NCBI GenBank assembly: GCA_038245725.1
Contig: JBBRSD010000004.1
Span: 26,591 to 90,590, forward strand
Direction: 5' to 3'
From: Coriobacteriia bacterium
GTDB taxonomy: Bacteria; Actinomycetota; Coriobacteriia; Anaerosomatales; JAAXUF01
DNA length: 64,000 bases
The notes under the pieces are model-generated. The model worked only from the letters and a program-made list of their open reading frames with translations, had not been told where the DNA came from and searched no databases. A program made the translations under genes and the position numbers. Shown in pieces: positions 25,938-53,004 of this stretch. Each line of letters opens with the position of its first letter. Within the stretch, counting starts at the first letter, position 1.

Positions 25938-27392
25938 ATGCCTGCCGAGGGTTTCTCGACGCGCGGTCGGCGTCGGATCACCCTGCAGTCGGTCCTCCTG
26001 GCGTCAGATCTCCTTATGGTCGGGCTGGGCACGATGGCGTCGTCGCTCATCCGGTTCCACCGTCTCCGTCACATCGCGGCGATCCCGGGCAGCGGCCTGA
26101 ATGTCCAGTTTGCGGACTTATCGCTCGTCATCGGCGTGATCTGGATCGCATCGCTGTGGTTCGAGGGACTCTACGACATCGAACGTGTCTTCTGGGGTAC
26201 GGGCGAATACAGCCGCGTGGCCCGTGCTCTCTCCTTTGGCGTGGTCGTCTTCATCATGGCTACCTATGTCCTCAAGCTGAACGACATCTCTCGCGGATGG
26301 GTCATTTTCGCCTGGGCGCTCGCAATCTTATTCGTGGTGATCGGAAGAACCCTCGTGCGTACCGCACTCGTGAATGCGCATCGCAGAGGCCACCTGCTCC
26401 GACCAACCCTCGTCGTGGGATACAACGAGGAGGCAGCCGCCCTCATTCGCCGGCTTCGCTCCGACACGTCGTCGGGGCTAGACCCCATCGCGTGTCTGGC
26501 GAGTTCACGTCAGGATCAACTCGGGTTGCACTACTGCACCCCGGGCGTGGAATGCCTCGGCGCGGCCGGCGACATCAAGGCCGTCCTCGACGACCATGTC
26601 TTCGACACGGTCGTTATCGCCTCGACCGCTTTCGACCCCGACGTGCTCTCGCGGATCATCACCGACCTGCGCGGCCGCGACATTGAGATCGGACTCTCGT
26701 CGGGCCTACTCGACGTGACGACTTCGAGAGTACTCATCCGCGAGATCTCCGGCGTTCCGCTGATCACCGTGCGAGGTGTCTCGTTTTCGAGAGGCAGACA
26801 GTTCGTCAAGAGGACGTTTGACCTGATCGTGGGTGCTCTCTTCATCGTCGTTGGGACGCCCATGTGGATGATCTTGGCGCTCATGATAACGATCGACAGC
26901 CGGGGTCCCGTGTTCTACAGACAGAGGCGGGTCGCGCGCGGGGGTTCCTTCTTCGAGATGTACAAGTTCCGATCGATGAGCGTGGGTGCCGAGCACGTCC
27001 GTCAGCAACTCGAGGCCAGCAATGAGGCGAGCGGCCCTCTCTTCAAGATGCAAGCCGATCCCAGGGTCACTCGAGTGGGAAGATGGATGCGGAAGTTCTC
27101 TATCGACGAGTTCCCGCAGCTCATCAACGTGATGCGCGGAGAGATGTCTCTTGTAGGTCCTCGGCCGCCGCTTCCTCAGGAAACCGTCAACTACTCGGAC
27201 TACCACTGGCGGCGCATGGAGGTGTTGCCCGGCATGACCGGCTTGTGGCAGATCTCCGGACGGAGCGCCCTGACGTTCGACGAGATGATTCGCCTTGATC
27301 TGTTCTACATCGAGAACTGGTCGGTCGGCTTCGACATGGCCGTCATTCTGAGGACTGTACCCGCAGTGCTGTTGGCCAGAGGAGCCGTCTGA
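25938..27392 (+). CDS. Priming polyprenyl glycosylphosphotransferase (WcaJ/CpsE-like)
   Basis: 4 TM plus CoA-binding-like region, KRTFD, KFRSM, DPRVTRVG, DEFPQL.NV..G.MSLVGPRP, PGMTGLWQ. Confidence 0.93.
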   Translation: MPAEGFSTRGRRRITLQSVLLASDLLMVGLGTMASSLIRFHRLRHIAAIPGSGLNVQFADLSLVIGVIWIASLWFEGLYDIERVFWGTGEYSRVARALSFGVVVFIMATYVLKLNDISRGWVIFAWALAILFVVIGRTLVRTALVNAHRRGHLLRPTLVVGYNEEAAALIRRLRSDTSSGLDPIACLASSRQDQLGLHYCTPGVECLGAAGDIKAVLDDHVFDTVVIASTAFDPDVLSRIITDLRGRDIEIGLSSGLLDVTTSRVLIREISGVPLITVRGVSFSRGRQFVKRTFDLIVGALFIVVGTPMWMILALMITIDSRGPVFYRQRRVARGGSFFEMYKFRSMSVGAEHVRQQLEASNEASGPLFKMQADPRVTRVGRWMRKFSIDEFPQLINVMRGEMSLVGPRPPLPQETVNYSDYHWRRMEVLPGMTGLWQISGRSALTFDEMIRLDLFYIENWSVGFDMAVILRTVPAVLLARGAV

Positions 27393-34092: not shown

Positions 34093-37000
34093 CTATGGCA
34101 GGGTCCGGCTCGTGATCATTGCGGAGTTGGTAGCGCCGCCAGCGTTGACCGCTTGGACTCGGATCCAGTAGTTGGTGTTCGGAATCAGCCCGCCCATCAA
34201 TCTCGATGTGACGGTAGCGGCAAGCGTACCTTGGGTGGTCCAAGGGCCGACGGAACCGGTTCTGCTGAACTGGACGCGCAGACTCGTTGCAGGTGTTCCT
34301 CCGACGGGGTTGGTCCACGCCACCGTCAAGGAGCCTCGAGTCGCAGGTGCCGAGAAGTGGAGATTGGTGCGAGCCAGAGGGGGAGTCGTCGGCGCGATTG
34401 CGTTGGCGACGTTAGTCCACTCTGAGAACGAGACGGAAGTCTCAGCCCTGACGCGGTAGTAATAGTGCACGCCGTTCACAATTGCGCTGTCCACATAGCT
34501 CGAGGGCGTGCCAGCGAGCGTGTGTGTCACCACCCCGGTCGTGAAGGCAGCGTTGGTCGCCCTCTGAACGTAGTAGTTAGTCGCGGCCGGAGACGTTGCG
34601 CGATTGATCCAGTGCAGGGTCAGCTTGATCGGCCCCAGACTCGGTATCAGGGTCAATGTCGTCGGCGCTTCAGGGGAGACCTCGAAGACGAACGGCCGCA
34701 TCATGTCGTTCTCTTCGTGGCCGAGCAGGTGGCAGTGCCACACGTACTCCCAGCCGAAGTTCGTCATTGAGTTAGTGACCGTCGTGCCCAATTGGTCGAC
34801 GAAGGTCGAGCCTACAGGCAGGGCCGGATTGAGCGGACGAATGCTGTCACCAAGCTTGAACGGTAGCTTCGGAACCATCGGTCGCATCGCAATGATGACG
34901 TCTTGACCCGGGTTCATGCGGATCGTCTCTTTCCAACCTAGTTCGTTGGCATCAGGGACGAACAACTGGCCGTCCAGCGCGATGCGGTTGATGAGCTGAA
35001 CGTTCATCAGGTGGAAGTGGATGGCGTGAGTATCCACGCCCTGATGGTCGATTCGCCAGATCTGCGTTCCATCGGCCAGTGCACCGATGGCCGTTCCAGG
35101 AATCGTGTTGGTTGTAATGTCTGTCGGCGGGTCGACGTAATCGAACGGAGTCGCTGCGCCGGCCGCAGGTCCGAAGTTAGGCAAGGTCCCGCCGAGGTTT
35201 GCGTTCATCCGGCCGAAGTCCGGGTCGAAGCCCTCGATGATGGCCTTCTCGTTCATGCTGAAGGTGACCGTCGCCGCGTGGCTTGCGGGCGAGAAGCTAA
35301 TCGACGTGTCGGTGGCATGGACGTAGTTGTTCCTAAACGTCGAGTTGAAGGTGGGTCCGTACACGGCTTCCGGTACGATCGGCTTGTCCTGGGTCGCAGC
35401 GTACGCGGCCTTCAGTCCCGTCGAAAGGGCGGGCAAGCTGAATGTAGCATCCGGCGTCGACGAGGTAACTTGGATCTGCATGACCGTACGCGTGTTGGGA
35501 CCGTAGCCCGGCTGCGTGGTGGGAGCGCCACCGCTCGAAAGTTGGTCCACATCGCCTGTGTAGTAGTCCAAGCGCGCGTCGAATGCGGGGACCGGCGCGG
35601 GCGCGTCGTTGTACAAGATGAGTTTGGAATCGTTCGGCACACCCGAGAAGTCGACGATGACATCTGCGCGCTCGGCCGGGCCGAGGAACAGCGTCTTGCT
35701 CGTGACGTTGAGCACCGTGATGGTCCGGCGGAAGTACTCATAGCCCACTGGGTTGTTCGGAAGCACGGTAGCCGACGGCAGGAACCCGCCCTCGGTGCCG
35801 ATCTGAATCATCGACGGACCAACAGCACTGGGGTCAGGCACTCCGCCATCGCGACCATCGGTCGGCCACGATGCGGGCCACGTCGACGTGCGCGACGCAG
35901 GAACCATCGGGACTTCACCGGCGTTACCATCGACCAGCGTCATACTTGCAGCATTGCTGCCCCACATCTGGCCGTTGGACTTGGCGAAGTAGAGCTGCAG
36001 GTTCAGCGAACGGTCGTTACATGCGTTGAGGATGCGGAAGCGATACGCCTTGCGACTCACCTGAACAACCGGGTAGGCCGTGCCGTTGACGAGCGGCGTA
36101 TCCATGAAGGCTTCAGGCACGATTGTCGGAGTTGGCGTCCCCGGAACCATCTTCGGCTGGCCAACCTGACCCCAGTAAGGGTTCGGAATCGGAGTGCCGA
36201 ACGTGCCTCCTCCAGCGATGCCCGGTATCGGGATGATCGGCGGATAGAACCATGGGTTGTAGTCCCAGCGGCCCATCGCACTCACACCGAAGAGCTCGTT
36301 GTCGAAGATGTCGTTGCCCGAGATCTGGTTCGGCATATAGACGTGCGGCAACCACAGATTGCCCGGGCCGCCCCATTTCGCCTGATCCCAAGTGGGATCC
36401 TCGGACGCGATTTGGCTGACGCTCGGAACGAACGTCTTGTCCTGTATGACCAGCGGAAGCTGAGCGGCAGGGATCGTGCCCGCAGAAACGGTGAAGGTCG
36501 ATCCATTTGCTTTGAAGGTGCCGCCGTTGACGAGCTTCTGCTCAATAGGGTCCTGAAGCAGATACCCGGCGGCTTCACCAGCGTACACGTTGAGGCGGGT
36601 GAGACCGTAGGAGTGATCGTGGTAGAACATCAACCGGGCGCTCTGTTGGTTCGTATAGTAGAACGTAATGGTTCCGCTACCGGCGCTGTTCGACGCACCA
36701 GCGGTTCCCGTAGCGACGGGATTGCCCGACGAGTTGAACCACATGTCCGGGACATTCTTCACACTCACGCCTACGGGATAGGTAGTGACCTCACCGGCAG
36801 GGGTCGTCCACTGGTGCGGCGTGCCGTCGCTGATCCAGGGCGTCGCGCCACCGTGAAGGTGGAGCGTTGCGCGGTTCTGAGAGTAGTCTCCGCCGTTCGG
36901 GCCCATGCCCGCACCCATGATCGTGGTGTCGGTCGGCAGGAATAGGTTGCCGCCTGCGCCAGTCGGCAGCTTGTTGACGAACTTAACGCGGACCGGTCGG

Positions 37001-37665
37001 TCCTTCTGCGCGATGATCAGCGGGCCCAAATAGTGGAATTTGCTCACGGCAGTATCGGTGGTGTTTGTCTGCCGATAACCGCGGAGTGTGGTCGCCGGGA
37101 TGTCAGACCCCAGCTTCTCGGTGTACTGACCCAGCTCGATAACGTAGTAGTCCGAGCCCGGGAACGATGTCTTGTCGGGCACGGCGACCGGCAGATACTG
37201 GCCCAGGTTGTTGGCCGCACCTACACCGAGTCCTGGCAGGGTGTCTACGAACTTCCTGATACCGGTGCCGGGGATGGCATTGCCACTTGCGTCGAGGTCA
37301 GGAAGGGGACTGTTGGCGTAGTTGGCGACGTTGTAATAGTCCGGTGTTGCGTTCGGCGTCAAGGTTGCCGCAACTGCGCTTGGCGCGCGCATGGCGGCGA
37401 GCGGATTGTTGCCCTTGAGCAGCGCACTCAGAGCAGAGTTGAGTGGGCTTGAACTCTTGAGTGCCCGATATTTCGTTAAGCGCGCTGCAGAAGCGCGCCT
37501 CTGAGCGTTAGTGACTTCGTGTACGGCCTGAGCCTTAAGTGATGACGTCGTCTGTTGAGGTACGATCCGCCCGCGACTTCGTTGCGCGGCGATTCCTTGC
37601 GCGGCGCCCCACGACAGGCCCAGTACGAGCACTGTCACGAGAATCCACATACGTCGCTTCCCCAT
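34093..37665 (-). CDS. Large secreted multicopper oxidase with two C-terminal fibronectin type III domains
   Basis: Signal peptide. All four Cu motifs: HLHG, FYHDH, HAIHFH, WHCHLLGHEENDMM. FN3 signatures YYYRVRA and YWIRVQAVN. ATG at 37665 after AAGGGAG. Confidence 0.92.
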   Translation of the reverse strand: MGKRRMWILVTVLVLGLSWGAAQGIAAQRSRGRIVPQQTTSSLKAQAVHEVTNAQRRASAARLTKYRALKSSSPLNSALSALLKGNNPLAAMRAPSAVAATLTPNATPDYYNVANYANSPLPDLDASGNAIPGTGIRKFVDTLPGLGVGAANNLGQYLPVAVPDKTSFPGSDYYVIELGQYTEKLGSDIPATTLRGYRQTNTTDTAVSKFHYLGPLIIAQKDRPVRVKFVNKLPTGAGGNLFLPTDTTIMGAGMGPNGGDYSQNRATLHLHGGATPWISDGTPHQWTTPAGEVTTYPVGVSVKNVPDMWFNSSGNPVATGTAGASNSAGSGTITFYYTNQQSARLMFYHDHSYGLTRLNVYAGEAAGYLLQDPIEQKLVNGGTFKANGSTFTVSAGTIPAAQLPLVIQDKTFVPSVSQIASEDPTWDQAKWGGPGNLWLPHVYMPNQISGNDIFDNELFGVSAMGRWDYNPWFYPPIIPIPGIAGGGTFGTPIPNPYWGQVGQPKMVPGTPTPTIVPEAFMDTPLVNGTAYPVVQVSRKAYRFRILNACNDRSLNLQLYFAKSNGQMWGSNAASMTLVDGNAGEVPMVPASRTSTWPASWPTDGRDGGVPDPSAVGPSMIQIGTEGGFLPSATVLPNNPVGYEYFRRTITVLNVTSKTLFLGPAERADVIVDFSGVPNDSKLILYNDAPAPVPAFDARLDYYTGDVDQLSSGGAPTTQPGYGPNTRTVMQIQVTSSTPDATFSLPALSTGLKAAYAATQDKPIVPEAVYGPTFNSTFRNNYVHATDTSISFSPASHAATVTFSMNEKAIIEGFDPDFGRMNANLGGTLPNFGPAAGAATPFDYVDPPTDITTNTIPGTAIGALADGTQIWRIDHQGVDTHAIHFHLMNVQLINRIALDGQLFVPDANELGWKETIRMNPGQDVIIAMRPMVPKLPFKLGDSIRPLNPALPVGSTFVDQLGTTVTNSMTNFGWEYVWHCHLLGHEENDMMRPFVFEVSPEAPTTLTLIPSLGPIKLTLHWINRATSPAATNYYVQRATNAAFTTGVVTHTLAGTPSSYVDSAIVNGVHYYYRVRAETSVSFSEWTNVANAIAPTTPPLARTNLHFSAPATRGSLTVAWTNPVGGTPATSLRVQFSRTGSVGPWTTQGTLAATVTSRLMGGLIPNTNYWIRVQAVNAGGATNSAMITSRTLP

Positions 37666-38011
37666 AATGCGCGCTCCCTTCCTCTCACTTGCTTGCATCT
37701 ATCTTGCGGTAGCAGCGCCGGATACGTTCCCATGCTCTGACGCCTGCGAGGGCGCGCTTCGCATCCGGAAAACAGGCCGAAAGCGTCGCGAGCAAACCCG
37801 ACAGGGGTTCATCACACTGAAGCCGAGAAGATAAGCTGTCTGTTCGGGAAGACGTGGGGTATCCTAAGGGCAGTCGGTGACTGTCCTGTGGGACAGGTTC
37901 CCGAATGACGACGCGTCCGGCTGTTGCAGTGACTTTGCTGAGACTTTCGTCCGACCCGGCTCGAGAGGTATCAAACGCACGTCGACTGCAAGCCAAGAAA
38001 GCGGGTCTGCG

Positions 38012-41763: not shown

Positions 41764-42132
41764 ATGCAGGCAGCCTCCGTCCAAGGAATTCTCTTCGTAC
41801 TCGGCCTCGTGACCGCAGCGACGGCCTTCATTCTCGTGGTGTTCGTCGCGAACTCAGTGCTTGCCCCGCGCAACCCGAGTTCCGAGAAGGACGCCCCCTT
41901 CGAGTGCGGCATGGAGCAGGCCGGCGAGGCTTGGAGCCCGCCGCGCATGCGTTTCTCCACGATCGCGATGCTCTTCGTGCTCTTCGACGCGGAAGCGATC
42001 CTACTGTTCGCCGTCGCCCCCGTGCTGCGGGGAAACCCGCTCGCTCTTATTGAGGTTGGTGGCTTCGTGTTTTTCCTCGCGATCGGCCTGGGCTACGCGT
42101 GGGGGAAGGGGGCGCTGGAATGGCGTTTGTAG
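41764..42132 (+). CDS. nuoA: Complex I subunit A
   Basis: K..PFECG, FVLFDAE, AW.KGALEW. Confidence 0.95.
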   Translation: MQAASVQGILFVLGLVTAATAFILVVFVANSVLAPRNPSSEKDAPFECGMEQAGEAWSPPRMRFSTIAMLFVLFDAEAILLFAVAPVLRGNPLALIEVGGFVFFLAIGLGYAWGKGALEWRL

Positions 42133-42695
42133 ACAAGCTTGGGGCCTCACTCGATGAGGGCTTCGGCGGCGTCATCCTTACGAGCGTTGACGCACTCGCC
42201 AACTGGTCGCGCGGCCAGTCGCTGTGGGCGTTTCCCATGGGCACTGCATGCTGCGCTTTGGAACTCATCGCCGCGTCGTTCAATAAGTTCGATTTCGACA
42301 GGCTCGGCACGTTTCCGCGACCGGATCCGCGCCACACGGACGTCATCATCCTGGCTGGAACCATCACCGAGAAGATGAAGCCGGCCATACTCCGGCTCTA
42401 CCACCAGATGCCGGAACCGAAATGGGTCATCGCGATGGGGAACTGCACCGTTTCGGGCGGCATCTTCTACTACGACACGTACTCCGTCGTACGCGGCGCC
42501 GACACCTTCCTCCCGGTAGACGTCTACATCGGCGGCTGCCCGCCCCGGCCGGAGGCGCTTCAGGACGCGATCATGCAGCTCAGAGAGATCGTGAACTCCG
42601 AGTCGATTGCTCCGGGCAAGCGGTACAAGCGCGACTACCTCCTGCCGGGCGGACCGCGCAGCGCCGGACCGGCCGAGACTGGTGGTGACGAGTGA
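42120..42695 (+). CDS. nuoB: Complex I subunit B
   Basis: ACCALE, QMPEPKWVIAMGNC, PVDVYIGGCPPRPE. Confidence 0.96.
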   Translation: MAFVDKLGASLDEGFGGVILTSVDALANWSRGQSLWAFPMGTACCALELIAASFNKFDFDRLGTFPRPDPRHTDVIILAGTITEKMKPAILRLYHQMPEPKWVIAMGNCTVSGGIFYYDTYSVVRGADTFLPVDVYIGGCPPRPEALQDAIMQLREIVNSESIAPGKRYKRDYLLPGGPRSAGPAETGGDE

Positions 42696-43153
42696 GCCTC
42701 GACGAACTCCAGCGACGCCTCTCCGAGCTCTCACCGGTCCTCGCGCCGTTGTTCTCGCGCGAGTTCGGCGACGCCGTTATCGGCGTGGCGCACGACGCGG
42801 TTTTCGAAACGGCCCTGGAGCTCAAGACGATCGGGTTCGACCGCCTCGGCATGGTGACTGCCGTCGACCGTGGCGAGTACTTCACGATGGTCTACCGGCT
42901 GCAGTCGCGTTCGCTCTCGTCGGCGATCTTCCTGAAGACACGGCTGGCGCGCGACGATGCGCACGTTCGCTCGCTGTGCGACGTGTGGCCCGCCGCGCTG
43001 TGGCAGGAGCGCGAGGTCTACGACATGTTCGGGATCATCTTCGACGAGCACCCCGACCTGCGACGGATCCTGCTGCCCGACGATTTCGAGGGCTTCCCGC
43101 TGCGCAAGGACTACGAGAATCCCAACATGATCAGGCGGCCGGATTACATCTGA
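42692..43153 (+). CDS. nuoC: Complex I subunit C
   Basis: TAVD, W.EREVYDMFGI.F..HPDLRRIL, PLRKDY. Confidence 0.95.
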   Translation: MSLDELQRRLSELSPVLAPLFSREFGDAVIGVAHDAVFETALELKTIGFDRLGMVTAVDRGEYFTMVYRLQSRSLSSAIFLKTRLARDDAHVRSLCDVWPAALWQEREVYDMFGIIFDEHPDLRRILLPDDFEGFPLRKDYENPNMIRRPDYI

Positions 43154-43169: not shown

Positions 43170-44315
43170 GTGACACTGAAGATCGAATCGAGCACCAACG
43201 TACTCTCCGAGGAGGGCCTGCCTGTCCAAGAGGTCATCGTCAACGTCGGCCCGTCACACCCGTCGACCCACGGTGTCGGCCGGGTCCTCGTCCATCTCGA
43301 TGGCGACGTGGTTGTCAAAGCCGACATGATCATCGGCTACCTGCATCGCGGCATCGAGAAGATGGCTGAAAACCGCACATATTTGCAGATCGTGCCGCTG
43401 ACCGACCGCCTCGACTACGTGGGCAGCATGTATGCGAACTGGGCGTACTGTCGGGCTGTAGAGCGTCTCGCCGGGATACGCGTACCCGAACGCGCTGAGT
43501 ACCTGCGCGTGATTGTGTGCGAACTTCAGCGCATCGCGAGTCACATGATGGGCATCGGCGCCGCGTCTGCGGACACCGGAGCCTTCACGATGTTCATCTA
43601 CGCATTCGATGTGCGCGAACGCGTCGTCGAGCTATTCGAAGCGTTGTGCGGGGCGCGGCTTACCTACAACTACGTCAGGCCGGGTGGCGTATCGCGCGAC
43701 GCGCCCGAGGGTTGGGCCGACGACGTGGTGAAGTTCACGCAGGGAGTCCGCAAGGACCTCGACGAGATGGACCAGCTCTTCTTCGGCAACACGATCGCCC
43801 GAGGCAGGATGAAGGGCATCGGCGTTCTGTCGGCTGAAGACGCTGTTGCCTGGGGAGCGTCGGGACCCACGGCGCGGGGCAGTGGCGTGAATTGGGACCT
43901 GCGCAAGCACGACCCGTACTCCGTCTACCCGCGCATTGAGTTCGACGTGGTAGTGGGCGACAACGGCGACTCCTACGACCGCAACCGCGTCCGGCTTCTC
44001 GAGTGCTACGAGTCGGCCAAGATTATCGAGCAAGCTGTCGCTCAGATGGGCGGCGGCGCGGTGATGGCGGACGGCCAGTCGCGTCTCATCGTGCCCGCTC
44101 CCGGTGACGCCTACGACCACATCGAATCAGCCCGCGGCTCCCTGGGCGTCTATCTCGTCTCCGACGGCTCGCCGCGGCCGTATCGCATGAAGGTGCGATC
44201 GCCAGCTTTCTGCAACCTCGCGCTGCTTTCGCAGCTCGCTGTAGGGCACACGCTCGCCGACCTGGTCGTTGTGCTCGGGTCGCTTGACCCCGTCTTCGGG
44301 GAGGTGGACCGGTGA
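43170..44315 (+). CDS. nuoD: Complex I subunit D
   Basis: NVGPSHPSTHG, GYLHRGIEK, DRLDY, DPVFGEVDR. No NiFe CxxC motifs. Confidence 0.96.
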   Translation: MTLKIESSTNVLSEEGLPVQEVIVNVGPSHPSTHGVGRVLVHLDGDVVVKADMIIGYLHRGIEKMAENRTYLQIVPLTDRLDYVGSMYANWAYCRAVERLAGIRVPERAEYLRVIVCELQRIASHMMGIGAASADTGAFTMFIYAFDVRERVVELFEALCGARLTYNYVRPGGVSRDAPEGWADDVVKFTQGVRKDLDEMDQLFFGNTIARGRMKGIGVLSAEDAVAWGASGPTARGSGVNWDLRKHDPYSVYPRIEFDVVVGDNGDSYDRNRVRLLECYESAKIIEQAVAQMGGGAVMADGQSRLIVPAPGDAYDHIESARGSLGVYLVSDGSPRPYRMKVRSPAFCNLALLSQLAVGHTLADLVVVLGSLDPVFGEVDR

Positions 44316-45271
44316 CGAGCCTTGTGTGGGGACTCGTTGTCGGCCTTGTCTCGGGCATGGTCATCGCGCTGGGTGCGCTTGTGGGCGTGTGGGTGGAGCG
44401 CAAGGTCGCTGCCCGCATCCAGATGCGACTGGGGCCTCAGGAGGCCGGCCCGTTCGGCTTGCTGCAGACGCTCGCCGACACCGTGAAGCTGGTCCTGAAG
44501 GAGGACATCACCCCCACCCAGGCCGACGTGCGCATCTTCCGCATAGCGCCGCTGCTCGTGTTCGTGCCGGTGGCGTCCTCGCTCGCGGTCATCCCGCTGG
44601 CGGCCGGCTGGGCACCCCTGAACATCGCGTCGAGCGCGCTGTTCTTCCTCGCCGTGCCCGCGGTCTCAGTCATCGGGATCCTGCTCGCAGGGTGGTCTTC
44701 TCGGAATACGTACGCATCGATCGGCGGAATCCGAGGCGCGAGCCAGATGATCTCCTACGAGCTGCCGAGAACGCTCTCGGTGCTGTCGCTGTGCGTGCTG
44801 TCGGGCACCGTCTCGGCGGTGGGCATCCACGACTCGTTTCGACTGTGGTGGCTGCCGGTCAACGCACTGGGTTTCCTGGTCTATTTCATCTCCTCGCTCG
44901 CGGAGCTCAACCGCGGGCCGTTCGACCTTCCCGAAGCCGAGTCCGAGCTGGTCGCCGGCTACTTCGCCGACTACTCGGGGATCCGCTGGTCGATCTTCAT
45001 GATGGCCGAGTACGGCGGCATCGTGGCCGCATCGATCTTCGGTACCGCCGTCTTCTTCGGCGGGGGCCTGGGACTGCGCGGGTTGCTCGGCGCCGTCGTG
45101 TACGCGGGAATCGCTTCGCTGATCGCCATCGCGATGATCTGGGTGAAGTGGACGTATCCGCGCATGCGGCCCGATCAGCTCATGACGCTCGCGTGGAAGG
45201 TCCTCACGCCGATGGCACTCGTGCAGCTCACGGTTGCCGGAATCATCACGGCGGTGATTCCGTGGCACTAG
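44312..45271 (+). CDS. nuoH: Complex I subunit H
   Basis: ERKV.ARIQ.R.GP, KEDITP, QMISYE, PFDLPEAESELVAG, PRMRPDQL. Confidence 0.96.
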   Translation: MTSLVWGLVVGLVSGMVIALGALVGVWVERKVAARIQMRLGPQEAGPFGLLQTLADTVKLVLKEDITPTQADVRIFRIAPLLVFVPVASSLAVIPLAAGWAPLNIASSALFFLAVPAVSVIGILLAGWSSRNTYASIGGIRGASQMISYELPRTLSVLSLCVLSGTVSAVGIHDSFRLWWLPVNALGFLVYFISSLAELNRGPFDLPEAESELVAGYFADYSGIRWSIFMMAEYGGIVAASIFGTAVFFGGGLGLRGLLGAVVYAGIASLIAIAMIWVKWTYPRMRPDQLMTLAWKVLTPMALVQLTVAGIITAVIPWH

Positions 45272-45324
45272 CCAAACGCGACCCTCGCCGCGACCCCATC
45301 GATCGTACCTCCACGGAGGTCCGC

Positions 45325-47406
45325 ATGCACGTCTCGGCGACCGACGAGTACGCTCCCGGCGTGAGAGGTTTTCTCCAGAGGTGGGCGAGCGCGTGGACCG
45401 GCCTCGCGATCACGGGCAAGCGCGCGCTCGGGAAACCGACGACGGTCCGCTACCCGCTCGAGAAGCTGACGCTCTCGCCGAGATGGCGCGGGCCGCTGCG
45501 CCTGACCGGAATCCTCGGCCGGGACGAGATCTCGACGATATCGGCGGCGCCGACCGAGTACAACGAACTCATCGACACACTGCTCCACGCCGAGCAGCTT
45601 CCGCCGTGCGTGGGCAACTGCCCCGCGAATGTGGACGCGCGCGGCCAGGCGTATCACCTCGCCGAAGACCGCGTCGCTGAGGCCTACGAGCTCGTTCGTG
45701 AGCGCAACATCATGCCGGGCGTGCTTGGGCGCATCTGCCACCATCCGTGCGAGGCGGCGTGTCGCCGCAATTACTACGACGAGCCCATTGCGATCCGCCC
45801 GCTGCACCGGGTAGCGTTCGAACGCTACGCCGAGGTTCGCGATGAGCGCGTCAAGCCGCTTCCGCGAACGCGCGAGCAGGAGATAGCGATCATCGGTTCT
45901 GGCCCCAGTGGCCTTGCGGTCGCGCTCGATCTCATGCGGCTCGGCTATGGCGTGACCGTCTACGAGAAGGAGCAGCACGCTGGCGGCGCCCTCTTCACGG
46001 GCGTTCCGGCGTATCGCCTGCCACGCGAGGTGCTGAAACAGGAGGTCGACGACCTGGTCGCCATGGGCATGCACCTACGACTCGGCGTCGCAGTTGGCGA
46101 CGACGTGCCCATCGACCATCTGATAGGGGAGTACGATGCGGTTCTGATCGCTGCTGGTCTGCAGGAGAGTCGTATCCTGCCGCTGCCAGGAGCCGACGCG
46201 AAGGGCGTCCGAGGAGCCCTGGACTTCCTGCGCGACGGCAACTTCAAGAACGACGCCGGCGTCAAGGGCAAGCGCGTGCTGGTGGTTGGCGGCGGAAACG
46301 TGGCCGTGGACTGCGCTCGAGTCGCTCTGCGGGTCGGCGCTTCCGAGGTCACGCTCACCTCGCTCGAGTCGATGGACGAGCTCCCGGCCCATCCCTGGGA
46401 GATTGAAGAGGCCCTCGACGAGGGCGTGATCGCGAACTGCTCGTGGGGGCCCAAGGAGGTCCTCACCGAGAACGGGCACGTCACTGGAATGCGCCTCCAG
46501 AGTTGCCTGTCGGTCTTCGACGCGCAAGGCCGATTCGCCCCCCACTTCGCCGAGGAGTACACAGACATCTCCGCCGACGTCGTCGTGTTCGCCATCGGCC
46601 AGTCTCCCAAGCTCGGTCCGATCGTCGCTGGCTCCGATATCCTGCTGACGGAGAGAGGCCTCCTGCCTGTCGACGGCGCCTTGCTCACGACCAACGTACC
46701 TCGCGTGTTCGCGTGCGGCGAAGTGGTCACGGGCCCCGGTTCGGCGATCGGGTCGATCGCGAGCGGACACGAAGCGGCTGCCTCCATCCACCGCATGCTC
46801 TCGGGCGTTGACCTGGCTGCGGACAGAACGTATCGGCCCGTTCCGGTGTATCCGCACTATCAGAAAGCCACCGTGGCCGGCGTCGAATCGATGCGCCGAC
46901 GCGTCAAGATGCCGATGGCCAAGGGGCCAGAACGGGCGAAGGACTTCAGGACCGTCGAGCTCGGATTCACACACCTCGAAGGGCTTGCGGAGGCGGCTCG
47001 CTGTTTGCGCTGCGACTCAGGTGTCTGCGTTGGGTGCACGTTTTGCGCGCGCACGTGCCCGGACTACGCCATTCGCGTCGAGCGCGTGGACGACCCGGGT
47101 GGTCGCTGCGTGACCCGATACGACTTCGACCTGTCGAAGTGCTGCTTCTGCGGCCTGTGCGCCGAGCAGTGCCCCACACGTGCGCTTGTGCACACCGGCC
47201 AGTACGAGCTCTCCTTCTACTCGCGTGAGTACACCTTGTTCGACAAGACTGAGATGGTCCGATCGGCGGAAGGCACGAGAGCGACCGGGGTCGAGATGCC
47301 CGACGACGCGCTGGCCGCGCATGGGGGCCCGACGGGCTTGCCGGTGACCTCGGACAGCGCTCCGGAAAACCCCGAGGACCTCCTCGAAGGGCGGGTGCGG
47401 TCGTGA
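45325..47406 (+). CDS. nuoI: NuoI with an internally inserted GltD/NfnB-like FAD/NAD(P)H Fe-S oxidoreductase module
   Basis: NuoI N-part GLAITGKRALGKPTTVRYPLEK...PRWRG. Insert PPCVGNCP, GRICHHPCEAAC, GSGPSG, GGGNVAVD, FACGE, EAARCLRC. NuoI C-part CVGCTFCARTCP and CCFCGLCAEQCP...YEL..YSRE. ATG at 45325 after GGAGG (alternative GTG at 45262). Confidence 0.92.
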   Translation: MHVSATDEYAPGVRGFLQRWASAWTGLAITGKRALGKPTTVRYPLEKLTLSPRWRGPLRLTGILGRDEISTISAAPTEYNELIDTLLHAEQLPPCVGNCPANVDARGQAYHLAEDRVAEAYELVRERNIMPGVLGRICHHPCEAACRRNYYDEPIAIRPLHRVAFERYAEVRDERVKPLPRTREQEIAIIGSGPSGLAVALDLMRLGYGVTVYEKEQHAGGALFTGVPAYRLPREVLKQEVDDLVAMGMHLRLGVAVGDDVPIDHLIGEYDAVLIAAGLQESRILPLPGADAKGVRGALDFLRDGNFKNDAGVKGKRVLVVGGGNVAVDCARVALRVGASEVTLTSLESMDELPAHPWEIEEALDEGVIANCSWGPKEVLTENGHVTGMRLQSCLSVFDAQGRFAPHFAEEYTDISADVVVFAIGQSPKLGPIVAGSDILLTERGLLPVDGALLTTNVPRVFACGEVVTGPGSAIGSIASGHEAAASIHRMLSGVDLAADRTYRPVPVYPHYQKATVAGVESMRRRVKMPMAKGPERAKDFRTVELGFTHLEGLAEAARCLRCDSGVCVGCTFCARTCPDYAIRVERVDDPGGRCVTRYDFDLSKCCFCGLCAEQCPTRALVHTGQYELSFYSREYTLFDKTEMVRSAEGTRATGVEMPDDALAAHGGPTGLPVTSDSAPENPEDLLEGRVRS

Positions 47407-47903
47407 ATCAGTTCTGGTCGATTGCACTGTTGTGGGGACTGGCTGGCGTCGCCGTGAGCAGCGCGCTTGTTGTTGTCTTCGTGCGCGACGTCATGCGCAT
47501 GGTTCTTGGTCTCGGCGTTTTCTTCCTGTCGCTTGCTGGCTTGTTCGCTTACTTCGCGTTCGGCTTCCTGGCGCTCGCCGAACTCTTCGTGTACGTGGGC
47601 GGGGTGCTCGTGTTGATCCTGTTCGCAATCATGCTCGTCCACCGGTCAGAAGCCGGCAGACCGAGCCTCGACCTCCGAGAAGCGTTCGTCCCCGGCTTCA
47701 CTGCCGCGCTCAGCTCGATCCTGCTCGGTTTCATGTTCTGGCCACTGGCCAAGTCGATCGGACCCGTCACATCGCCCGGCGCACCAGAGGCTCTCGGGAG
47801 GGTGCTCACTGGGTCGCTTCTCTCTCAGTTCGAGATCGCCGGGTTCCTTCTCCTCGTCGCCCTGGTCGCGGTCGTGCTCGTGACGGGCGGTGATCGCTCA
47901 TGA
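47403..47903 (+). CDS. nuoJ: Complex I subunit J
   Basis: VYVGGV.VLILFAIML, FEIAG.LLLVALV. Confidence 0.92.
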   Translation: MNQFWSIALLWGLAGVAVSSALVVVFVRDVMRMVLGLGVFFLSLAGLFAYFAFGFLALAELFVYVGGVLVLILFAIMLVHRSEAGRPSLDLREAFVPGFTAALSSILLGFMFWPLAKSIGPVTSPGAPEALGRVLTGSLLSQFEIAGFLLLVALVAVVLVTGGDRS

Positions 47904-48226
47904 TTCTCGTGGCGCTTTCGTGCGCGCTGTTCGGTATCGGGCTGTTCGGAGTGCTAGCTCGCCGCGATATCGTGGCCATCCTCGCCTCGATCGAAGTCAT
48001 GCTGGGGGGACCGCTTCTGCTGCTCATCGGCCTCGGCTCGACCGCTCGCGCTGCCGCGGCGAATGCGGCAGCGGCATCCGGGCAGGCCGCGACGGTCGAA
48101 GGTGCCGCACTCCTCGTCATCGTCGTTGCGGCGGCAGAAGCGTCGGTCGGACTTGCGCTGCTTGTCACCGTTGCGCGCCGATCGCACACGACGACCCTCG
48201 AGGACCTATCGGAGGTGAGGGGCTGA
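47900..48226 (+). CDS. nuoK: Complex I subunit K
   Basis: LFGIG.FG.L.RR, SIEVML, VAAAEASVGLAL. Confidence 0.93.
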   Translation: MILVALSCALFGIGLFGVLARRDIVAILASIEVMLGGPLLLLIGLGSTARAAAANAAAASGQAATVEGAALLVIVVAAAEASVGLALLVTVARRSHTTTLEDLSEVRG

Positions 48227-50085
48227 TGGCCTGGATGCTGAACGCCGCATGGATCGCAGTCGCGGTGCCCTTCGCGCTCGCACTCATCGTGGTCGCTATC
48301 GGCGCCTTCTCCAGGCCGCTTTCGGCCGTGGTTGCCGCGATGGGGCCGACGCTCGTGATCGCTCTTGGAGTCGCGGCGCTGCGCGTCGTCTCTGTAACCG
48401 GGGCCCCGGTGAGGCCATGGACGAGTTCGCTCGCGGCTCACGGCTCCGCCGATTGGTTTGCGGCTGGAGGGCGCGCAATCGAGATCGGCTGGGCGGTCGA
48501 TTCACTCAGCGCGATGATGCTGCTGGTTGTGGGGGTCGTCGCGCTCATGGTGATGGTCTTCTCGGCGGGGTATATGCGCGGCGATCCGGGATGGTCGCGG
48601 TATTTCGCGCTGCTGTCGGCGTTCACCGGGTCGATGGCTCTGCTCGTCATCGGGGACTCGTTCATCTCCCTGTTCATCGGCTGGGAGCTTGTGGGCGCGT
48701 GCAGCTACCTGCTCATCGGATTCTGGTACGAGAAGCCATCCGCCGCGCAAGCCGCGGTCAAAGCCTTTCTCACTACGCGGATAGGCGATGTGGGACTCTT
48801 GCTTGGGATCGTCTTGTTGGGTACGGCGACAGGTTCGCTTTCCTATGCGGGCGTCATAGGTAACCTCGGGGTGATGTCGTCGTCTGCGATCACGCTTGCG
48901 GCGGTTCTTCTCGCCGCAGGCGCCATCGGGAAATCGGCGCAGTTCCCACTTCACATCTGGCTGCCCGATGCGATGGAGGGTCCGACCCCGGTCTCGGCGC
49001 TCATCCACGCCGCAACGATGGTCGCAGCGGGCGTCTACCTGGTCGTGCGCGTGTGGCCGATCTTCGAGGCGGCGCCCGTTGCGCGAACGGTGCTCCTGAG
49101 CGTCGGCGTCGTGTCGGCACTGGGAGCCGCGCTCATCGCGCTGACTCAACGCGATATCAAGCGGGTGCTCGCATACTCGACGATCAGCCAGCTGGGTTTC
49201 ATGTTCGCGGCGCTCGGAGTGGGCGCGTGGAACGTCGCCTTCTTCCACCTCGTGACCCACGCCGCGTTCAAAGCGCTCCTGTTCCTGGCGGCGGGCAGCG
49301 TCATTCACGGTTCGGGTACGCAGGACTTGCGCGAGATGGGGGGACTGCGCACCTCGATGCCGGTCACCTTCGGCGCGTGGCTCGTCGGAGCCGGCGCTCT
49401 GATCGGCTTACCTCCGCTGGCCGGCTTCATGAGCAAGGACGCCGTTCTCGACGCGGTTTGGATCCACAATCCGGTCGCCGGCATCGCGCTCTTTGCAGCC
49501 ACCGCGCTGACCGGCTTCTACACCGTGCGCACTACCAAACTCGCGTTCTTCGGCGGTTCCCGAGGCGAACGCCACGTCCATGAGAGTCCACTGTCGATGC
49601 TAATCCCTATTGTCATACTCGCCGTTCCCGCTGGCGCGCTTGGTCTGGCCAGTTCCTCTGTCGCCGAGAAGCTCGGGCAGCATCCGGTCGGGCTCTCTGT
49701 GCCGGTCAGCGGCATCGCGGCGCTGCTTGCGCTAGCGGGCGGCATGATCGGCTGGAGCGACGCGCTACAAGACCGCCGAGGAGTCGCGCCGTCAGGGACC
49801 GCCGGGCGGGTGTGGGGACTCATCCGCACGGGGTTCGGCTACGACGCGGCGATTGAGAAGCTGGTGGTCGCCCCGACGGTCGCGGCGTGCCGCGCGACAT
49901 GGGCCATCGTTGACCGATTCGTCATCGATGGCGCTGTCGAAGGATCGGGCCTTGCGACGAAGTGGCTAGGCGGGCTCGTGTCACGCGCCCAAAGCGGCGA
50001 TGGTCAGGGTTACGCCGCATTCACCGCCCTTGGGATGGTCGTACTACTTGCGACGCTCGTCTTGGTTGGGCGGTGGGTGGGGTGA
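48226..50085 (+). CDS. nuoL: Complex I subunit L
   Basis: GWELVG..SYLLIGFW, GKSAQFPLHIWLPDAMEGPTPVSALIHAATMV, HAAFKALLFL. Confidence 0.96.
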   Translation: MAWMLNAAWIAVAVPFALALIVVAIGAFSRPLSAVVAAMGPTLVIALGVAALRVVSVTGAPVRPWTSSLAAHGSADWFAAGGRAIEIGWAVDSLSAMMLLVVGVVALMVMVFSAGYMRGDPGWSRYFALLSAFTGSMALLVIGDSFISLFIGWELVGACSYLLIGFWYEKPSAAQAAVKAFLTTRIGDVGLLLGIVLLGTATGSLSYAGVIGNLGVMSSSAITLAAVLLAAGAIGKSAQFPLHIWLPDAMEGPTPVSALIHAATMVAAGVYLVVRVWPIFEAAPVARTVLLSVGVVSALGAALIALTQRDIKRVLAYSTISQLGFMFAALGVGAWNVAFFHLVTHAAFKALLFLAAGSVIHGSGTQDLREMGGLRTSMPVTFGAWLVGAGALIGLPPLAGFMSKDAVLDAVWIHNPVAGIALFAATALTGFYTVRTTKLAFFGGSRGERHVHESPLSMLIPIVILAVPAGALGLASSSVAEKLGQHPVGLSVPVSGIAALLALAGGMIGWSDALQDRRGVAPSGTAGRVWGLIRTGFGYDAAIEKLVVAPTVAACRATWAIVDRFVIDGAVEGSGLATKWLGGLVSRAQSGDGQGYAAFTALGMVVLLATLVLVGRWVG

Positions 50086-51527
50086 TCCGCCTTGACCTCA
50101 TGATCCTCGTCCCGGCCATGCTTGCCGTCGCCTCCATCCTGGTCGGACGGCTTGAAGACACGCTCCCGCGCTGGGTTGCTCTGACGGGGGTTCTGGCGCA
50201 GGGTGCGCTGATTCTCAGCCTCGCTGGCACGGGGGTCCTGCGCGGCGTGCGCGTTCTCGGGGTGGATGGCTCAATCACCAGGGGAGTGTGGCAGTCAGTC
50301 ATCGACGGACTCTCTCTGCCACTCGTTCTTCTCACGGTGTTCATCGGACTCGCCGCCGTGGTGGTCTCGTGGAGTCTCTCCGAGCGAACCGGCACCTACT
50401 TCGGCCTGCTCCTGACCTTGCAGGCTGCGATGACCGCAGTGTTCCTTGCCGACAGCATCCTGATGTTCTATATCGCCTGGGAGTGCGTCCTGATCCCCAT
50501 GTACTTCCTGATCGGGGGCTGGGGCTCTTCGAATCGCAGGCATGCCGCTACCAAGTTCCTGATCTACACCTTCGCGGCAGGTGGCGTCATGTTGCTGGGG
50601 ATTATCTTCCTGTTGGTCCAGAGTTCCGGCACCACGTCCATTTCGACGATGGTCGCGAGGCATGGCCAGATGGCGGTGCCGCCATTGGTGTACTGGCTGC
50701 TCATGATCGGCTTTCTCGTGAAGGTTCCGGTCGTTCCGTTCCATACATGGCTACCGGACGCGCACACCGAGGCTCCGACCGCAGGGTCGATCATTCTGGC
50801 GGGGATCCTGCTCAAGATGGGGGGCTACGGGATCCTGCGCATCGCGATGCCCATCGCCCCCGAGGCGTTCGTTCAAGGTCGCGGGATCCTTGCCGCCCTC
50901 GGCATCATCGGCATCGTCTACGGAGCGGCGATGGCACTGGTGCAGTCTGATCTCAAGCGCCTCGTCGCGTACTCTTCCGTGTCTCACATGGGATTCGTCA
51001 TCCTAGCGATCGCGGCGGCGACCCCGGACTCCATCGGCGCAGCGATGCTCGCCATGGTGAGCCACGGGCTCGTCGCCGGCTTGCTCTTCCTGCTGGTCGG
51101 GGCGGTGTACGAGCGCACGCAGACCCGGGAACTCAGCGGTCTGGGAGGGCTCGGTCGCGCGATGCCCGTCTGGAGTGCCGCGTTCGTCTTTGCGGCTCTT
51201 GCTTCGCTCGGGCTGCCCGGCCTCTCGGGTTTCCCCGGCGAGTTCGTGACGTTCCTGGCGGGCGTCGCGCGATTCGGATGGTGGATCGCCGTCGCCGCTT
51301 TCGGCTTGGTGTTGGCTGCCGCGTACAACTTGCGTGCCGTGCGCGCTTCGGTCCAGGGACCCGCACGTCATACGGGAACACTTTCGGATCTGGGCACTCG
51401 TGAGATCTCCCTGGTCACGGCCTTTTCGGTGGCGATTGTGCTTCTCGGCGTCCAGCCCGTCTTGTTGCTGCGCGCAGCCGAGCATGCGTTCGTCGCGCTC
51501 GCCGCCATCGTGAACGGAGGGTTGTGA
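50082..51527 (+). CDS. nuoM: Complex I subunit M
   Basis: WE..LIPMYFLI, PFHTWLPDAHTEAP, LKMGGYG, LGLPGLSGFPGE. Confidence 0.96.
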   Translation: MIRLDLMILVPAMLAVASILVGRLEDTLPRWVALTGVLAQGALILSLAGTGVLRGVRVLGVDGSITRGVWQSVIDGLSLPLVLLTVFIGLAAVVVSWSLSERTGTYFGLLLTLQAAMTAVFLADSILMFYIAWECVLIPMYFLIGGWGSSNRRHAATKFLIYTFAAGGVMLLGIIFLLVQSSGTTSISTMVARHGQMAVPPLVYWLLMIGFLVKVPVVPFHTWLPDAHTEAPTAGSIILAGILLKMGGYGILRIAMPIAPEAFVQGRGILAALGIIGIVYGAAMALVQSDLKRLVAYSSVSHMGFVILAIAAATPDSIGAAMLAMVSHGLVAGLLFLLVGAVYERTQTRELSGLGGLGRAMPVWSAAFVFAALASLGLPGLSGFPGEFVTFLAGVARFGWWIAVAAFGLVLAAAYNLRAVRASVQGPARHTGTLSDLGTREISLVTAFSVAIVLLGVQPVLLLRAAEHAFVALAAIVNGGL

Positions 51528-51528
51528 C

Positions 51529-53004
51529 GTGACCGCAATGGCCACCTTCGTGCTCACGTACTGTGTCACGCTCACCGTCGCTGTCATCGCTCTGGCGTTA
51601 GACGGTTTCGGGCGGGGCCGCAGCGGCTTGGTCGTGACGATTGCGGGGCTGACCGCGAGTGCGGCAGCTGGTCTGGGTGCGGGGGTGATGCGCACAGCGG
51701 GGCAGCACGTCGGTTCGCTGGAAGTGGGCGGACCGGCGTCCATGGTCTACGGCGTCATCGCCTTGGTTGGACTCGCGGCGGTGTTGGGCGGCCTCGAGAA
51801 CTTGGCTGCACGACCTTCCGGTGCGTCAATCGCTGCTCTGATTGCGTTCGGTGTGGCCACCTCGGGCGCTGTTGCTGCCTCAACAGATCTGATCACGCTT
51901 CTGCTGGTGCTGGAATCAACCGCGCTCGTGAGCTACGCACTCGTCTCCGCCGCCGGGACTCCGCGCGCCGGGGAAGCGGCGATCAAGTATTTCGTTCAAG
52001 GTGCGTTGGCCGCCGCACTGCTCCTTTTCGGTGTCGCAGTGTTCGTGGGCGCTTACGTCCCCTCTGGTCGATACGAAGTGCTTGCCGGCGTGCTCGGCTC
52101 GCCCAAGCTTCTATCTGTCGCGCTCGCCGCTACCGGACTCGTGATCGCTTCTCTCGCGTTCAAGATGGCCGCCTTTCCCTTCCACTCGTGGGCGCCGGAT
52201 GCCTACGAAACCGCTCCCCCCGAAGCCGCCGCATTCTTGGCAGCTGGGCCCAAACTTGCCACATTCGCGGCCGCGGCTGTCTTCGTGTCGATCGTCTCTT
52301 ACGGCGCGATCGCTCAGCGCGTCCTGGTTGTGACGGCGATTCTCGCCATTCTGTCGATTGCTGTCGGGTCGGTGGCCGCCTTGCGCCAGCAGGATTATCG
52401 CCGTCTCCTGGCGTATGCGGGAATAGCCCAAGCCGGCTTCGCCCTCATCGCCGTGGCGCTCGCCACACCGCCCCTGGCGGTCTTCTTTGGAGCGACGTAT
52501 GCGCTCGCAGCTGCGGGCACGTTTCTCGCCGCATCAGAATTTCGCAGGCTGCGTCCCGAGTGGAATGGCTCGGTTGCCGGTCTCGCGGGACTCGGGCGCG
52601 AGGCGCCTTTGTTGAGTGGCTCGGTCGCCATTCTCCTGATCTCACTGGCAGGCGTTCCGCCGTTCCTGGGCTTCTGGGGCAAGTTTCTGATCTTCCTTGC
52701 CGGTATCAGCGGCGCACTGCAAAACGGGCGAGGCGCCCCGGTCGCTTCCACGGTCGTCATCATTGCAGTCAGCGCGGGAGTCATCGGTTCCGTTGTCTCG
52801 CTGGGCTTCTACGGCTCGATTCTGCGCACCATCTACTTCGAGAAGACCGCTGGAGTCGCGGGGTCGCTGACAGGGGAGACGCGCGCAGCTATGGGACCCG
52901 CTGGCATCAGCGTCGTCACGCTCGCGGTCGTGGTCGTAGTCCTCGGGCTGCTCCCGTTGGTCATGGGATCGACCGTCATCTACGACCTGTTCGTGGCGCG
53001 ATAG
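51529..53004 (+). CDS. nuoN: Complex I subunit N
   Basis: EAAIKYF, FKMAAFPFHSWAPDAYE, SLAGVPPFLGFWGK. Confidence 0.95.
   Translation: MTAMATFVLTYCVTLTVAVIALALDGFGRGRSGLVVTIAGLTASAAAGLGAGVMRTAGQHVGSLEVGGPASMVYGVIALVGLAAVLGGLENLAARPSGASIAALIAFGVATSGAVAASTDLITLLLVLESTALVSYALVSAAGTPRAGEAAIKYFVQGALAAALLLFGVAVFVGAYVPSGRYEVLAGVLGSPKLLSVALAATGLVIASLAFKMAAFPFHSWAPDAYETAPPEAAAFLAAGPKLATFAAAAVFVSIVSYGAIAQRVLVVTAILAILSIAVGSVAALRQQDYRRLLAYAGIAQAGFALIAVALATPPLAVFFGATYALAAAGTFLAASEFRRLRPEWNGSVAGLAGLGREAPLLSGSVAILLISLAGVPPFLGFWGKFLIFLAGISGALQNGRGAPVASTVVIIAVSAGVIGSVVSLGFYGSILRTIYFEKTAGVAGSLTGETRAAMGPAGISVVTLAVVVVVLGLLPLVMGSTVIYDLFVAR

Follow-up and report, generated by a model that had tools for sequence, protein, structure and literature searches.

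A GltD/NfnB-type flavoprotein inserted in NuoI: a candidate electron-input module for a complex I without NuoEFG in Coriobacteriia

Results

The fused nuoI gene and its domain architecture

The subject of this study is an enlarged nuoI gene of complex I, found in a 64,000-nucleotide stretch of DNA (the window, by whose positions features are given) from an anaerobic actinobacterium of the Coriobacteriia (GenBank assembly GCA_038245725.1, contig JBBRSD010000004.1, forward-strand positions 26,591 to 90,590). The gene lies between nuoH and nuoJ in an operon without any other nuoI and encloses a flavoprotein of the GltD/NfnB type. As an initial annotation of this DNA had described, it is a single open frame of 693 codons with a stop-free translation (45325-47406, + strand). 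The frame given by that annotation stands, but its start, ATG 45325, is less likely than a GTG at 45262: the true coding sequence probably runs from 45262 to 47406 (+) and encodes 714 residues, because the in-frame residues upstream of ATG 45325 match the N-termini of homologs of 712-716 residues. From this start the gene would overlap the nuoH stop by 10 nt, and at its other end the stop overlaps the GTG start of nuoJ at 47403. Residue numbers throughout refer to the 693-residue reading from ATG 45325.

In a whole-genome search, the NuoI model TIGR01971 matched the fused gene in two pieces of the same frame, with a break at model position 41/42. Model positions 1-42 fall at 71990-72115 of contig C4 (window 45400-45525) and positions 41-121 at 73607-73846 of the same contig (window 47017-47256), with about 500 extra residues inserted at the break. 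The initial annotation had placed a NuoI N-terminus at about 45400-45495 and a NuoI 2x[4Fe-4S] domain with its tail at about 47025-47260, and had called the arrangement an insertion rather than an end-to-end fusion. The two model pieces bear this out; the flavoprotein is a true insertion into NuoI. The N-terminal segment (residues 26-67, 45400-45525, +) carries the motif T..YP.EK...R(W/F)RG, which follows a helix predicted at residues 13-34 in an AlphaFold2 model. The C-terminal piece (residues 565-644, 47017-47256, +) comprises the 2x[4Fe-4S] ferredoxin domain and the NuoI-specific tail, with two CxxCxxCxxxCP motifs (C568, C571, C574, C578, C606, C609, C612, C616), and a search of the PDB matched residues 566-649 to NuoI/TYKY chains of many complex I structures (E down to 4.5e-20). 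The last stretch, a poorly conserved tail at residues 653-693 (47281-47403, +), is variable in alignment A2 and modeled with pLDDT <50.

The intervening part begins with the Fe-S portion of a GltD/NfnB module (Pfam Fer4_20, residues 93-168, 45601-45828, +; 56.6 bits against a cut-off of 25.8, covered only from model position 30), which holds C95, C99, C138, C142, C146, and H161. It continues with the FAD and NAD(P)H Rossmann domains (Pyr_redox_2, residues 186-481, 45880-46767, +; 98.4 bits against 26.1), marked by GSGPSG and GGGNVAVD motifs. A dicluster ferredoxin domain follows (Fer4_7, residues 568-620; 32.6 bits against 27), and Pfam detected no Fer2 or molybdopterin domain in the protein. 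Residues 82-617 matched StnC in the PDB (8oh5_C, E 6.3e-89), as well as 9bov_A and 9n5u_A, with NfnB (4ylf_B, E 3e-69; 5jca_L), GltD, and dihydropyrimidine dehydrogenase (DPD) ranking next. The AlphaFold2 model, built with 57 homologs, has a mean pLDDT of 85.1 and a pTM of 0.81, its low confidence being limited to residues 1-6, 38-52, and 653-693; searched with Foldseek, it again returned 8oh5_C, 9bov_A, and 9n5u_A on top, then NfnB, GltD, and DPD. Both the domain scores and these matches agree with the earlier description of an insert with Fe-S motifs and two Rossmann folds, and the cofactors predicted for the protein are one FAD and four [4Fe-4S] clusters.

No single curated family takes in the whole chain. 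The whole-protein TIGR01971 score (87.2 bits) lies under its cut-off of 113.05, and all PRK05888 sub-models also score under theirs, because the NuoI match is split. The best NCBIfam match is NF009410 (PRK12771), which covers residues 87-621 with model positions 42-560 of 566 at 444.6 bits, under its cut-off of 516, and the equivalog GltD/NfnB models all fall under their cut-offs as well (TIGR01316, 260 against 471.75; TIGR01317, 192.8 against 447.7; TIGR01318, 208.7 against 482.95). The protein is a NuoI on four grounds: the extent of the model covered, the pattern of cysteines, the tail, and the position of the gene.

The order of the parts within the insert differs from that of the stand-alone enzymes. 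With HMMER, residues 93-494 align to NfnB residues 45-461 (4ylf_B), residues 528-569 align to NfnB residues 5-48, and residues 524-564 align to residues 6-46 of NfnI (5jca_L). The chain thus runs from the 'PPC...CP' cysteines through both Rossmann folds to an 'EAxRCLxC' piece (C560, C563) and then into the first NuoI cluster motif. The relocated GltD/NfnB N-terminal piece (residues 528-564, 46906-47016, +) ends in RCLRC, so that the RCLxC element, at residues 556-563, comes after the flavoprotein rather than first as in the canonical GltD order. The inserted module is therefore circularly permuted relative to stand-alone NfnB and GltD, a feature that we add to the GltD/NfnB-like identity proposed by the initial annotation, which itself is upheld. 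The same permuted order occurs in StnC and in the NF009410 family. C563, a predicted ligand of a GltD cluster, stands four residues before C568 of the first NuoI cluster; therefore those two clusters must presumably be close. Both ends of the insert would meet at one Fe-S site, and insertion into another protein would therefore be geometrically easy.

The nuo operon and its genome

The fused gene belongs to a tightly packed operon of 11 genes on one strand, nuoABCDH-I-JKLMN, in which no gene lies between nuoD and nuoH. Upstream of it (all +) are nuoA (41764-42132; NCBIfam NuoA/NdhC models, E about 1e-16), nuoB (42099-42695; NF005012, 209 bits against a cut-off of 116), nuoC (42692-43153; TIGR01961, 125.9 bits against 122.45), a quinone-type nuoD (43170-44315; NF004739, 471.7 bits against 360), and nuoH (44312-45271; NF004741, 307.5 bits against 305). 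Downstream (also +) are nuoJ (47403-47903; NuoJ models, E 1e-18), nuoK (47900-48226; NF004320, 56.9 bits), and nuoL (48226-50085; NF005141, 594 bits against 556, the start being the Met aligned with the model), followed by nuoM (50097-51527; TIGR01972, 441 bits against 263.8), whose start is uncertain within an ORF open from 49962, and nuoN (51529-53004), for which TIGR01770 is the best family at 217 bits, under its cut-off of 332.6. The NuoB translation has a CC...C...CP pattern, which we take to be the cluster N2 cysteines. In NuoD the NiFe-ligand cysteines are absent, and HPSTHG and RLDYV are present, presumably the quinone-site His and Tyr motifs.

The complete 11-subunit gene set (nuoA, B, C, D, H, I, J, K, L, M, N) is accompanied by no input subunits. 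In line with the initial annotation, which had proposed a replacement of NuoEFG, none of the three was found in the operon, and NuoF (PF01512), NuoE (PF01257), and the NuoG Fe-S domain (PF10588) had no match in the whole genome, which is 98.5% complete with 1.4% contamination (2.43 Mb, 47 contigs, 65% GC). RnfD/NqrB (PF03116) likewise had no match in the whole genome. Markers of menaquinone synthesis scored above their cut-offs: an MqnA/MqnD-family gene of the futalosine pathway (258.9 bits) and a MenG/UbiE methyltransferase (237.4 bits).

A second nuo operon without nuoEFG lies on contig C5 (L009:3212-12930, about 75211-84929 of that contig in the window's genome, G000). It comprises nuoA, nuoB, a fused nuoCD of 578 residues, nuoH, an ordinary nuoI of 179 residues, and nuoJ, K, L, M, and N. 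Two versions of complex I lacking NuoEFG are thus encoded, with a flavoprotein insert in one only. In addition, tblastn found NuoL-, NuoB-, NuoH-, NuoI-, NuoC-, and NuoD-like genes clustered on contig C1 (L010:3367-9715, at about 79-86 kb). This cluster resembles those for a group-4 [NiFe]-hydrogenase or a formate hydrogenlyase and would be a third complex-I-related module of the genome.

The outer neighbors of the operon in the window are unrelated: a two-component system, an ABC-F ATPase, a type II/IV secretion ATPase, a phosphopentomutase-like enzyme, and a pyrimidine-nucleoside phosphorylase. A gene on the minus strand (34093-37698, -), upstream of a two-component system, encodes 1,201 residues that include a multicopper-oxidase domain (Cu-oxidase_2), weakly matched, and end in a fibronectin type III domain.

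Distribution and gene context

Among the best 80 loci from GTDB species genomes, seven carry the full-length form, all seven (7/7) with nuoA, B, C, D, and H directly upstream, and forms without the NuoI N-terminus have nuo neighbors in 0/73. This difference in context rules out a soluble enzyme unrelated to Nuo. The N-terminal junction was then followed with a query spanning it (residues 20-142) in 301 sampled Coriobacteriia genomes. It was present in 123 of these, a count that includes the window's own. Within the order of the window 122 of 142 genomes have it, against 0 of 158 elsewhere in the class, and 119 of the 123 best junction matches start no later than query residue 7 and reach residue 123 without a change of frame. 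A wider sample of 401 Actinomycetota genomes gave a full-length match in 23, of which 19 lie outside the class. The loci of these 19 are all within nuo clusters (19/19), 15 with nuoH directly upstream, one at a contig end, and three in the order nuoB-C-D-I-A-H, so that all 26 full-length loci fetched (7 + 19) are located in nuo clusters. Homologs in other genomes, a check proposed by the initial annotation, are accordingly plentiful: 122 of 142 genomes of the order and 19 other Actinomycetota genomes.

The three loci of divergent order come from distant Actinomycetota (L191, L198, and L199, in genomes G467, G444, and G402). There the fused nuoI comes right after nuoB-C-D and ahead of nuoA-H, and in L191 nuoBCD and the fused gene are on the strand opposite to nuoA-H-L-N; the fusion therefore moves together with the genes of the Q module. 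In four other loci (L194-L197, in G655, G726, G736, and G746), five or more NuoL/M/N-like antiporter genes, not three, lie downstream of a fused nuoI with the YRR motif described below, which suggests an enlarged pumping arm. In one metagenome-assembled genome from long reads, the fused nuoI was matched as three overlapping pieces (L016:8001-10024), suggesting frameshifts by sequencing error or a decaying copy.

For the window itself, a Logan contig of 4,698 nt, produced by a second assembler, spans 45200-47500 without gaps; it comes from the probable source run and so is no independent sample. It differs from the window by a single G>T at 47326 (codon 668), in the poorly conserved C-terminal tail. 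An assembly artefact or chance ORF is ruled out by the Logan contig, the junction in 122 of 142 genomes of the order, and the 19/19 loci in nuo clusters. The fusion is real, old, and under selection.

Conservation among homologs

Across an alignment of 57 sequences, the parts expected of both proteins are kept without exception (57/57): the NuoI N-motif (T40, Y43, P44, R55, G56), the GltD-type cysteines (C95, C99, C138, C142, C146, C560, C563), all eight NuoI cysteines, for a total of 15 cluster cysteines, both dinucleotide motifs (G191/G193/G196 and G322/G324/A327/D329), and R231. Position 161 is His in 50 of the 57 and Lys in seven. The site that contacts the 2'-phosphate of NADPH varies, with xLE in 47/57 and YRR(S/T) in 10/57 of the aligned homologs, and with LE in 11 and YRR in 14 of 25 fetched loci. 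In the window copy, SLES occurs after the second Rossmann strand, where the NADPH enzymes NfnB and StnC have YRRT.

A word-index search, with 8,000 candidates scored, gave 2,336 matches at E <=1e-3. Besides the query, the best 119 share 69-85% identity, are 609-733 residues long, and have an identical Pfam set; those with a name are called either 'FAD-dependent oxidoreductase [Coriobacteriia bacterium]' or 'glutamate synthase beta subunit-like oxidoreductase/formate hydrogenlyase subunit 6'. An exhaustive search of representatives at 50% identity returned 23,456 matches. Among the best 150 of these, 11 full-length proteins and one fragment open with the NuoI N-terminus (36-66% identity), and the rest start at about query residue 80-95. 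Two representatives, P0203 and P0297, whose cluster includes a 623-residue 'Ferredoxin--NADP reductase' of Neomoorella glycerini, are GltD-ferredoxin proteins with a variant NuoI/HycF-type N-motif, T.PYP...RG, and may reflect a similar insertion in another enzyme related to complex I, from Clostridia or Moorellia. When P0203 was used in one metagenome scan, it found only relatives that match from residue 28 or later, at 34-42% identity.

Phylogeny of the GltD core

Trees of the GltD core were computed with FastTree (147 rows) and in a quick IQ-TREE run (52 rows), leaving out P0159, P0167, P0182, and P0253 for their short core matches. In both, the 12 fused representatives split into four groups, which requires four changes, three of them forced by the starred branches. 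An approximately unbiased (AU) test did not reject a single clade of fused forms (p 0.123). The ferredoxin domain gave alike BLAST scores to the genome's own NuoI paralog (43.5 bits) and to forms outside nuo clusters (up to 51 bits), and the C-terminal tail is covered by the NuoI profile only, not by the PRK12771 type.

Discussion

Proposed role of the inserted module

In most genomes of one Coriobacteriia order, and in a number of anaerobic Actinomycetota lineages besides, NuoI contains a flavoprotein. We think it likely that the protein is the NuoI of an 11-subunit, quinone-reducing complex I into which a permuted GltD/NfnB flavoprotein has been inserted, its NADH input standing in for NuoEFG. 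The insert lies between the N-terminal membrane-side helix with its motif and the 2x[4Fe-4S] domain. In the mechanism that we postulate, NADH would bind the second Rossmann fold and reduce FAD, from which single electrons would pass to the FAD-proximal cluster (with C560, C563, and C95 as ligands, and H161 at the position of K170 in StnC), then to the second GltD cluster (C99, C138, C142, C146), then through the two NuoI clusters to cluster N2 in NuoB, and finally to menaquinone at the NuoD/NuoH site, with NuoL, M, and N pumping protons. The inserted module would thus be an electron-input device replacing NuoEFG, as the initial annotation had proposed. The order of clusters is proposed because of homology with StnC; more generally, we infer cofactor binding, nucleotide preference, cluster order, acceptor, and direction from the sequence.

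The probable choice of nucleotide is read from the motif after the second Rossmann strand. In Rossmann folds, an acidic residue at this site favors NADH and paired arginines favor NADPH. Because Leu-Glu replaces Arg-Arg in the window copy, this copy looks NADH-specific rather than NADPH-specific under that general rule, and the family as a whole seems to have NADH-type and NADPH-type branches.

Several points weigh against the role proposed. The putative nucleotide preference draws on a general rule for Rossmann folds, and the whole-protein scores fall under the curated cut-offs of both the NuoI models and NF009410. The same genome has a second nuo operon, also without nuoEFG, with an ordinary NuoI. 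No match to MenA (TIGR00751) was found in the genome, and a study on the two cultured members of Anaerosomatales, probably the same order, gives quinones as 'not detected' in both (PMC9686372).

The postulated machine may equally run backwards, with menaquinol and the proton-motive force yielding NAD(P)H. A serious rival is a role in this opposite direction, in which menaquinol from the oxidation of H2 or formate, together with the proton-motive force, would reduce NAD(P)+ at the GltD module to supply biosynthetic reductant. Complex I is reversible, H2 and formate are reported to serve as respiratory donors in cultured relatives (PMC9686372), GltD and NfnB modules are reported to work both ways (PMC10482914), and the NADPH-type YRR motif in 14 of the 25 fetched loci would suit an anabolic function. 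We nevertheless regard such a role as unlikely, as the window copy has the NADH-type LE motif and searches of the genome revealed no further membrane enzyme (NuoEFG, Rnf, or Nqr) that could oxidize catabolic NADH.

Homology to the bifurcating NfnB raises the further question of whether the module has kept bifurcation or confurcation, with FAD splitting or merging electrons between the NuoI chain and a ferredoxin docked at the second GltD cluster. R231, the equivalent of R201 in NfnB and R239 in StnC, is invariant, and a branch made up of the two GltD clusters and the first cluster of NuoI is conceivable, C563 and C568 being only four residues apart. StnC, however, the closest solved relative, has the same permuted form, and its FAD is described as non-bifurcating in the part of that study that deals with it (PMC10482914); the proximal-cluster position is His or Lys here and Lys in StnC, against Glu in NfnB, and no NfnA-like partner gene lies in or beside the operon. 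We consider this quite improbable, and no less so its fullest form, in which both NfnB exits, the NuoI chain to menaquinone and an exposed ferredoxin site, would give a membrane-bound complex I that pumps protons and links NAD(P)H, ferredoxin, and quinone through flavin-based bifurcation or confurcation, the NADH- and NADPH-type subfamilies tuning the coupled pool. That the protein is no complex I subunit at all, being a soluble PRK12771-type GltD-ferredoxin oxidoreductase that merely sits in the operon or a product of faulty assembly or gene calling, is scarcely credible: NF009410 is its best NCBIfam match (residues 87-621) and many GltD-ferredoxin proteins lack nuo neighbors (73 of 80 loci), but the NuoI-specific N- and C-terminal parts are present and conserved, the operon has no other nuoI, location in nuo clusters holds for 26/26 full-length loci against 0/73 of other forms, and the junction is kept in 122 of 142 genomes of the order and in a contiguous Logan contig.

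Comparison with known systems

An NADH-oxidizing NuoI, as we propose here, would combine features of several known proteins. With canonical NuoI (Nqo9, TYKY or NDUFS8) it shares the T..YP.E...RG motif, the two CxxCxxCxxxCP motifs, the NuoI-type tail, and the position between nuoH and nuoJ; it differs in the roughly 500 inserted residues and in that NuoG, the usual upstream partner, is absent from this genome. Other lineage-specific inputs replace NuoEFG on the 11-subunit core, such as the F420H2-dependent FpoF of Fpo, and, for photosynthetic NDH-1, ferredoxin together with NdhS. Those inputs are separate subunits or soluble carriers of unrelated folds, whereas here the module is covalently inserted in a core subunit. 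NfnB, GltD, SudA, and the N-terminal part of DPD share with the insert a Fer4_20 portion with two [4Fe-4S] sites and the FAD and NAD(P)H Rossmann folds, but the module here is permuted, lacks a partner subunit (NfnA or GltB), and has His rather than Glu or Gln as the putative fourth ligand of the proximal cluster. NF009410 proteins do have a permuted GltD and a dicluster domain, but they lack the NuoI N-terminus and tail, with nuo genes nearby in 0/73 loci.

Closest in both sequence and fold are StnC, from the transhydrogenase StnABC (8oh5), and the NfnABC A subunits (9bov, 9n5u), in which a permuted GltD is likewise embedded in a complex-I-type Fe-S protein, with Lys or His at the proximal-cluster position. 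As described in passages of the StnABC study, the GltD domain of StnC (residues 102-565) is inserted in a NuoG-like protein and feeds a linear chain, FAD-C7-C6-C5-C4-C3, from a non-bifurcating flavin, and in StnC and the NfnABC A subunits alike NADPH enters a linear cluster chain without bifurcation (PMC10482914). In those enzymes a soluble, NuoG-like host supplies a bifurcating module of the HydBC type, whereas the host here, NuoI, belongs to a membrane-bound Nuo complex of the quinone type. The match is confined to residues 91-624 of StnC, the protein here having no [2Fe-2S] or FdhF-like domain, and LE takes the place of YRR. Even so, StnC is probably the closest solved analog of how the fused NuoI works.

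A GltD-related flavoprotein at the position of NuoI has a precedent in a passage of Degli Esposti (2015), according to which it substitutes NuoI in Mbx-like operons (PMC4758237). That case rests on the same idea as ours, an NAD(P)-reactive flavoprotein of the GltD type where a membrane complex related to complex I would have its NuoI, and differs in that, as the same passage has it, the operons are Mrp-containing, non-quinone, and Mbx-like, occur in Thermotoga and proteobacteria, and provide a site of NAD(P)+ reduction (PMC4758237). Our scans of Thermotogota neither confirm nor refute the statement: in 81 genomes searched with profile A2, none among the 150 matches listed starts before profile position 51, and six GltD-ferredoxin loci (L091, L096-L100) had no nuo or mbx neighbors by tblastn at E 1e-4. 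One of the six, from genome G301, encodes a 599-residue GltD-plus-ferredoxin protein without the NuoI N-terminus directly behind genes for the small and large subunits of a [NiFe] hydrogenase, followed by genes for a HycI protease and an MvhD/FlpD-like protein (L091:5097-10353). This location near a soluble [NiFe] hydrogenase is another use of the permuted module.

The initial annotation knew of no description of the architecture, and no report of a NuoI-GltD fusion in nuo operons was found in the literature searched, figures and supplements lying outside the search. The study of cultured Anaerosomatales reports, in the passages concerned, nuo loci without NuoEFG, one of them given as NuoACDHJKLM without NuoI, and suggests ferredoxin as donor (PMC9686372); its authors evidently did not recognize the fused gene. 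Elsewhere, some figure legends list gltD and PF07992 beside nuo (PMC7325909). Already known, from passages on StnC, is a GltD domain inserted in a complex-I-type Fe-S subunit (PMC10482914); new here would be the permuted GltD insertion in the NuoI of a quinone-type complex I, as a lineage-specific input module.

Significance

The electron donor of the widespread 11-subunit complex I without NuoEFG is a question of long standing, which a paper from 2024 still calls unresolved (PMC11238625). In the lineage described here a probable donor module is written into a core subunit, and the donor question is therefore directly testable. The fused form occurs in most genomes of one Coriobacteriia order and in several other anaerobic Actinomycetota lineages. 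If its role is confirmed, the labels 'FAD-dependent oxidoreductase' and 'glutamate synthase small chain' in these genomes would be corrected, and the insert would be a clean example of circular permutation enabling domain insertion. Natural NADH-like and NADPH-like variants would be at hand for comparison, and the fused NuoI would represent a further independent link between the nicotinamide pool and the complex I core, with FAD and a GltD fold replacing FMN and NuoF.

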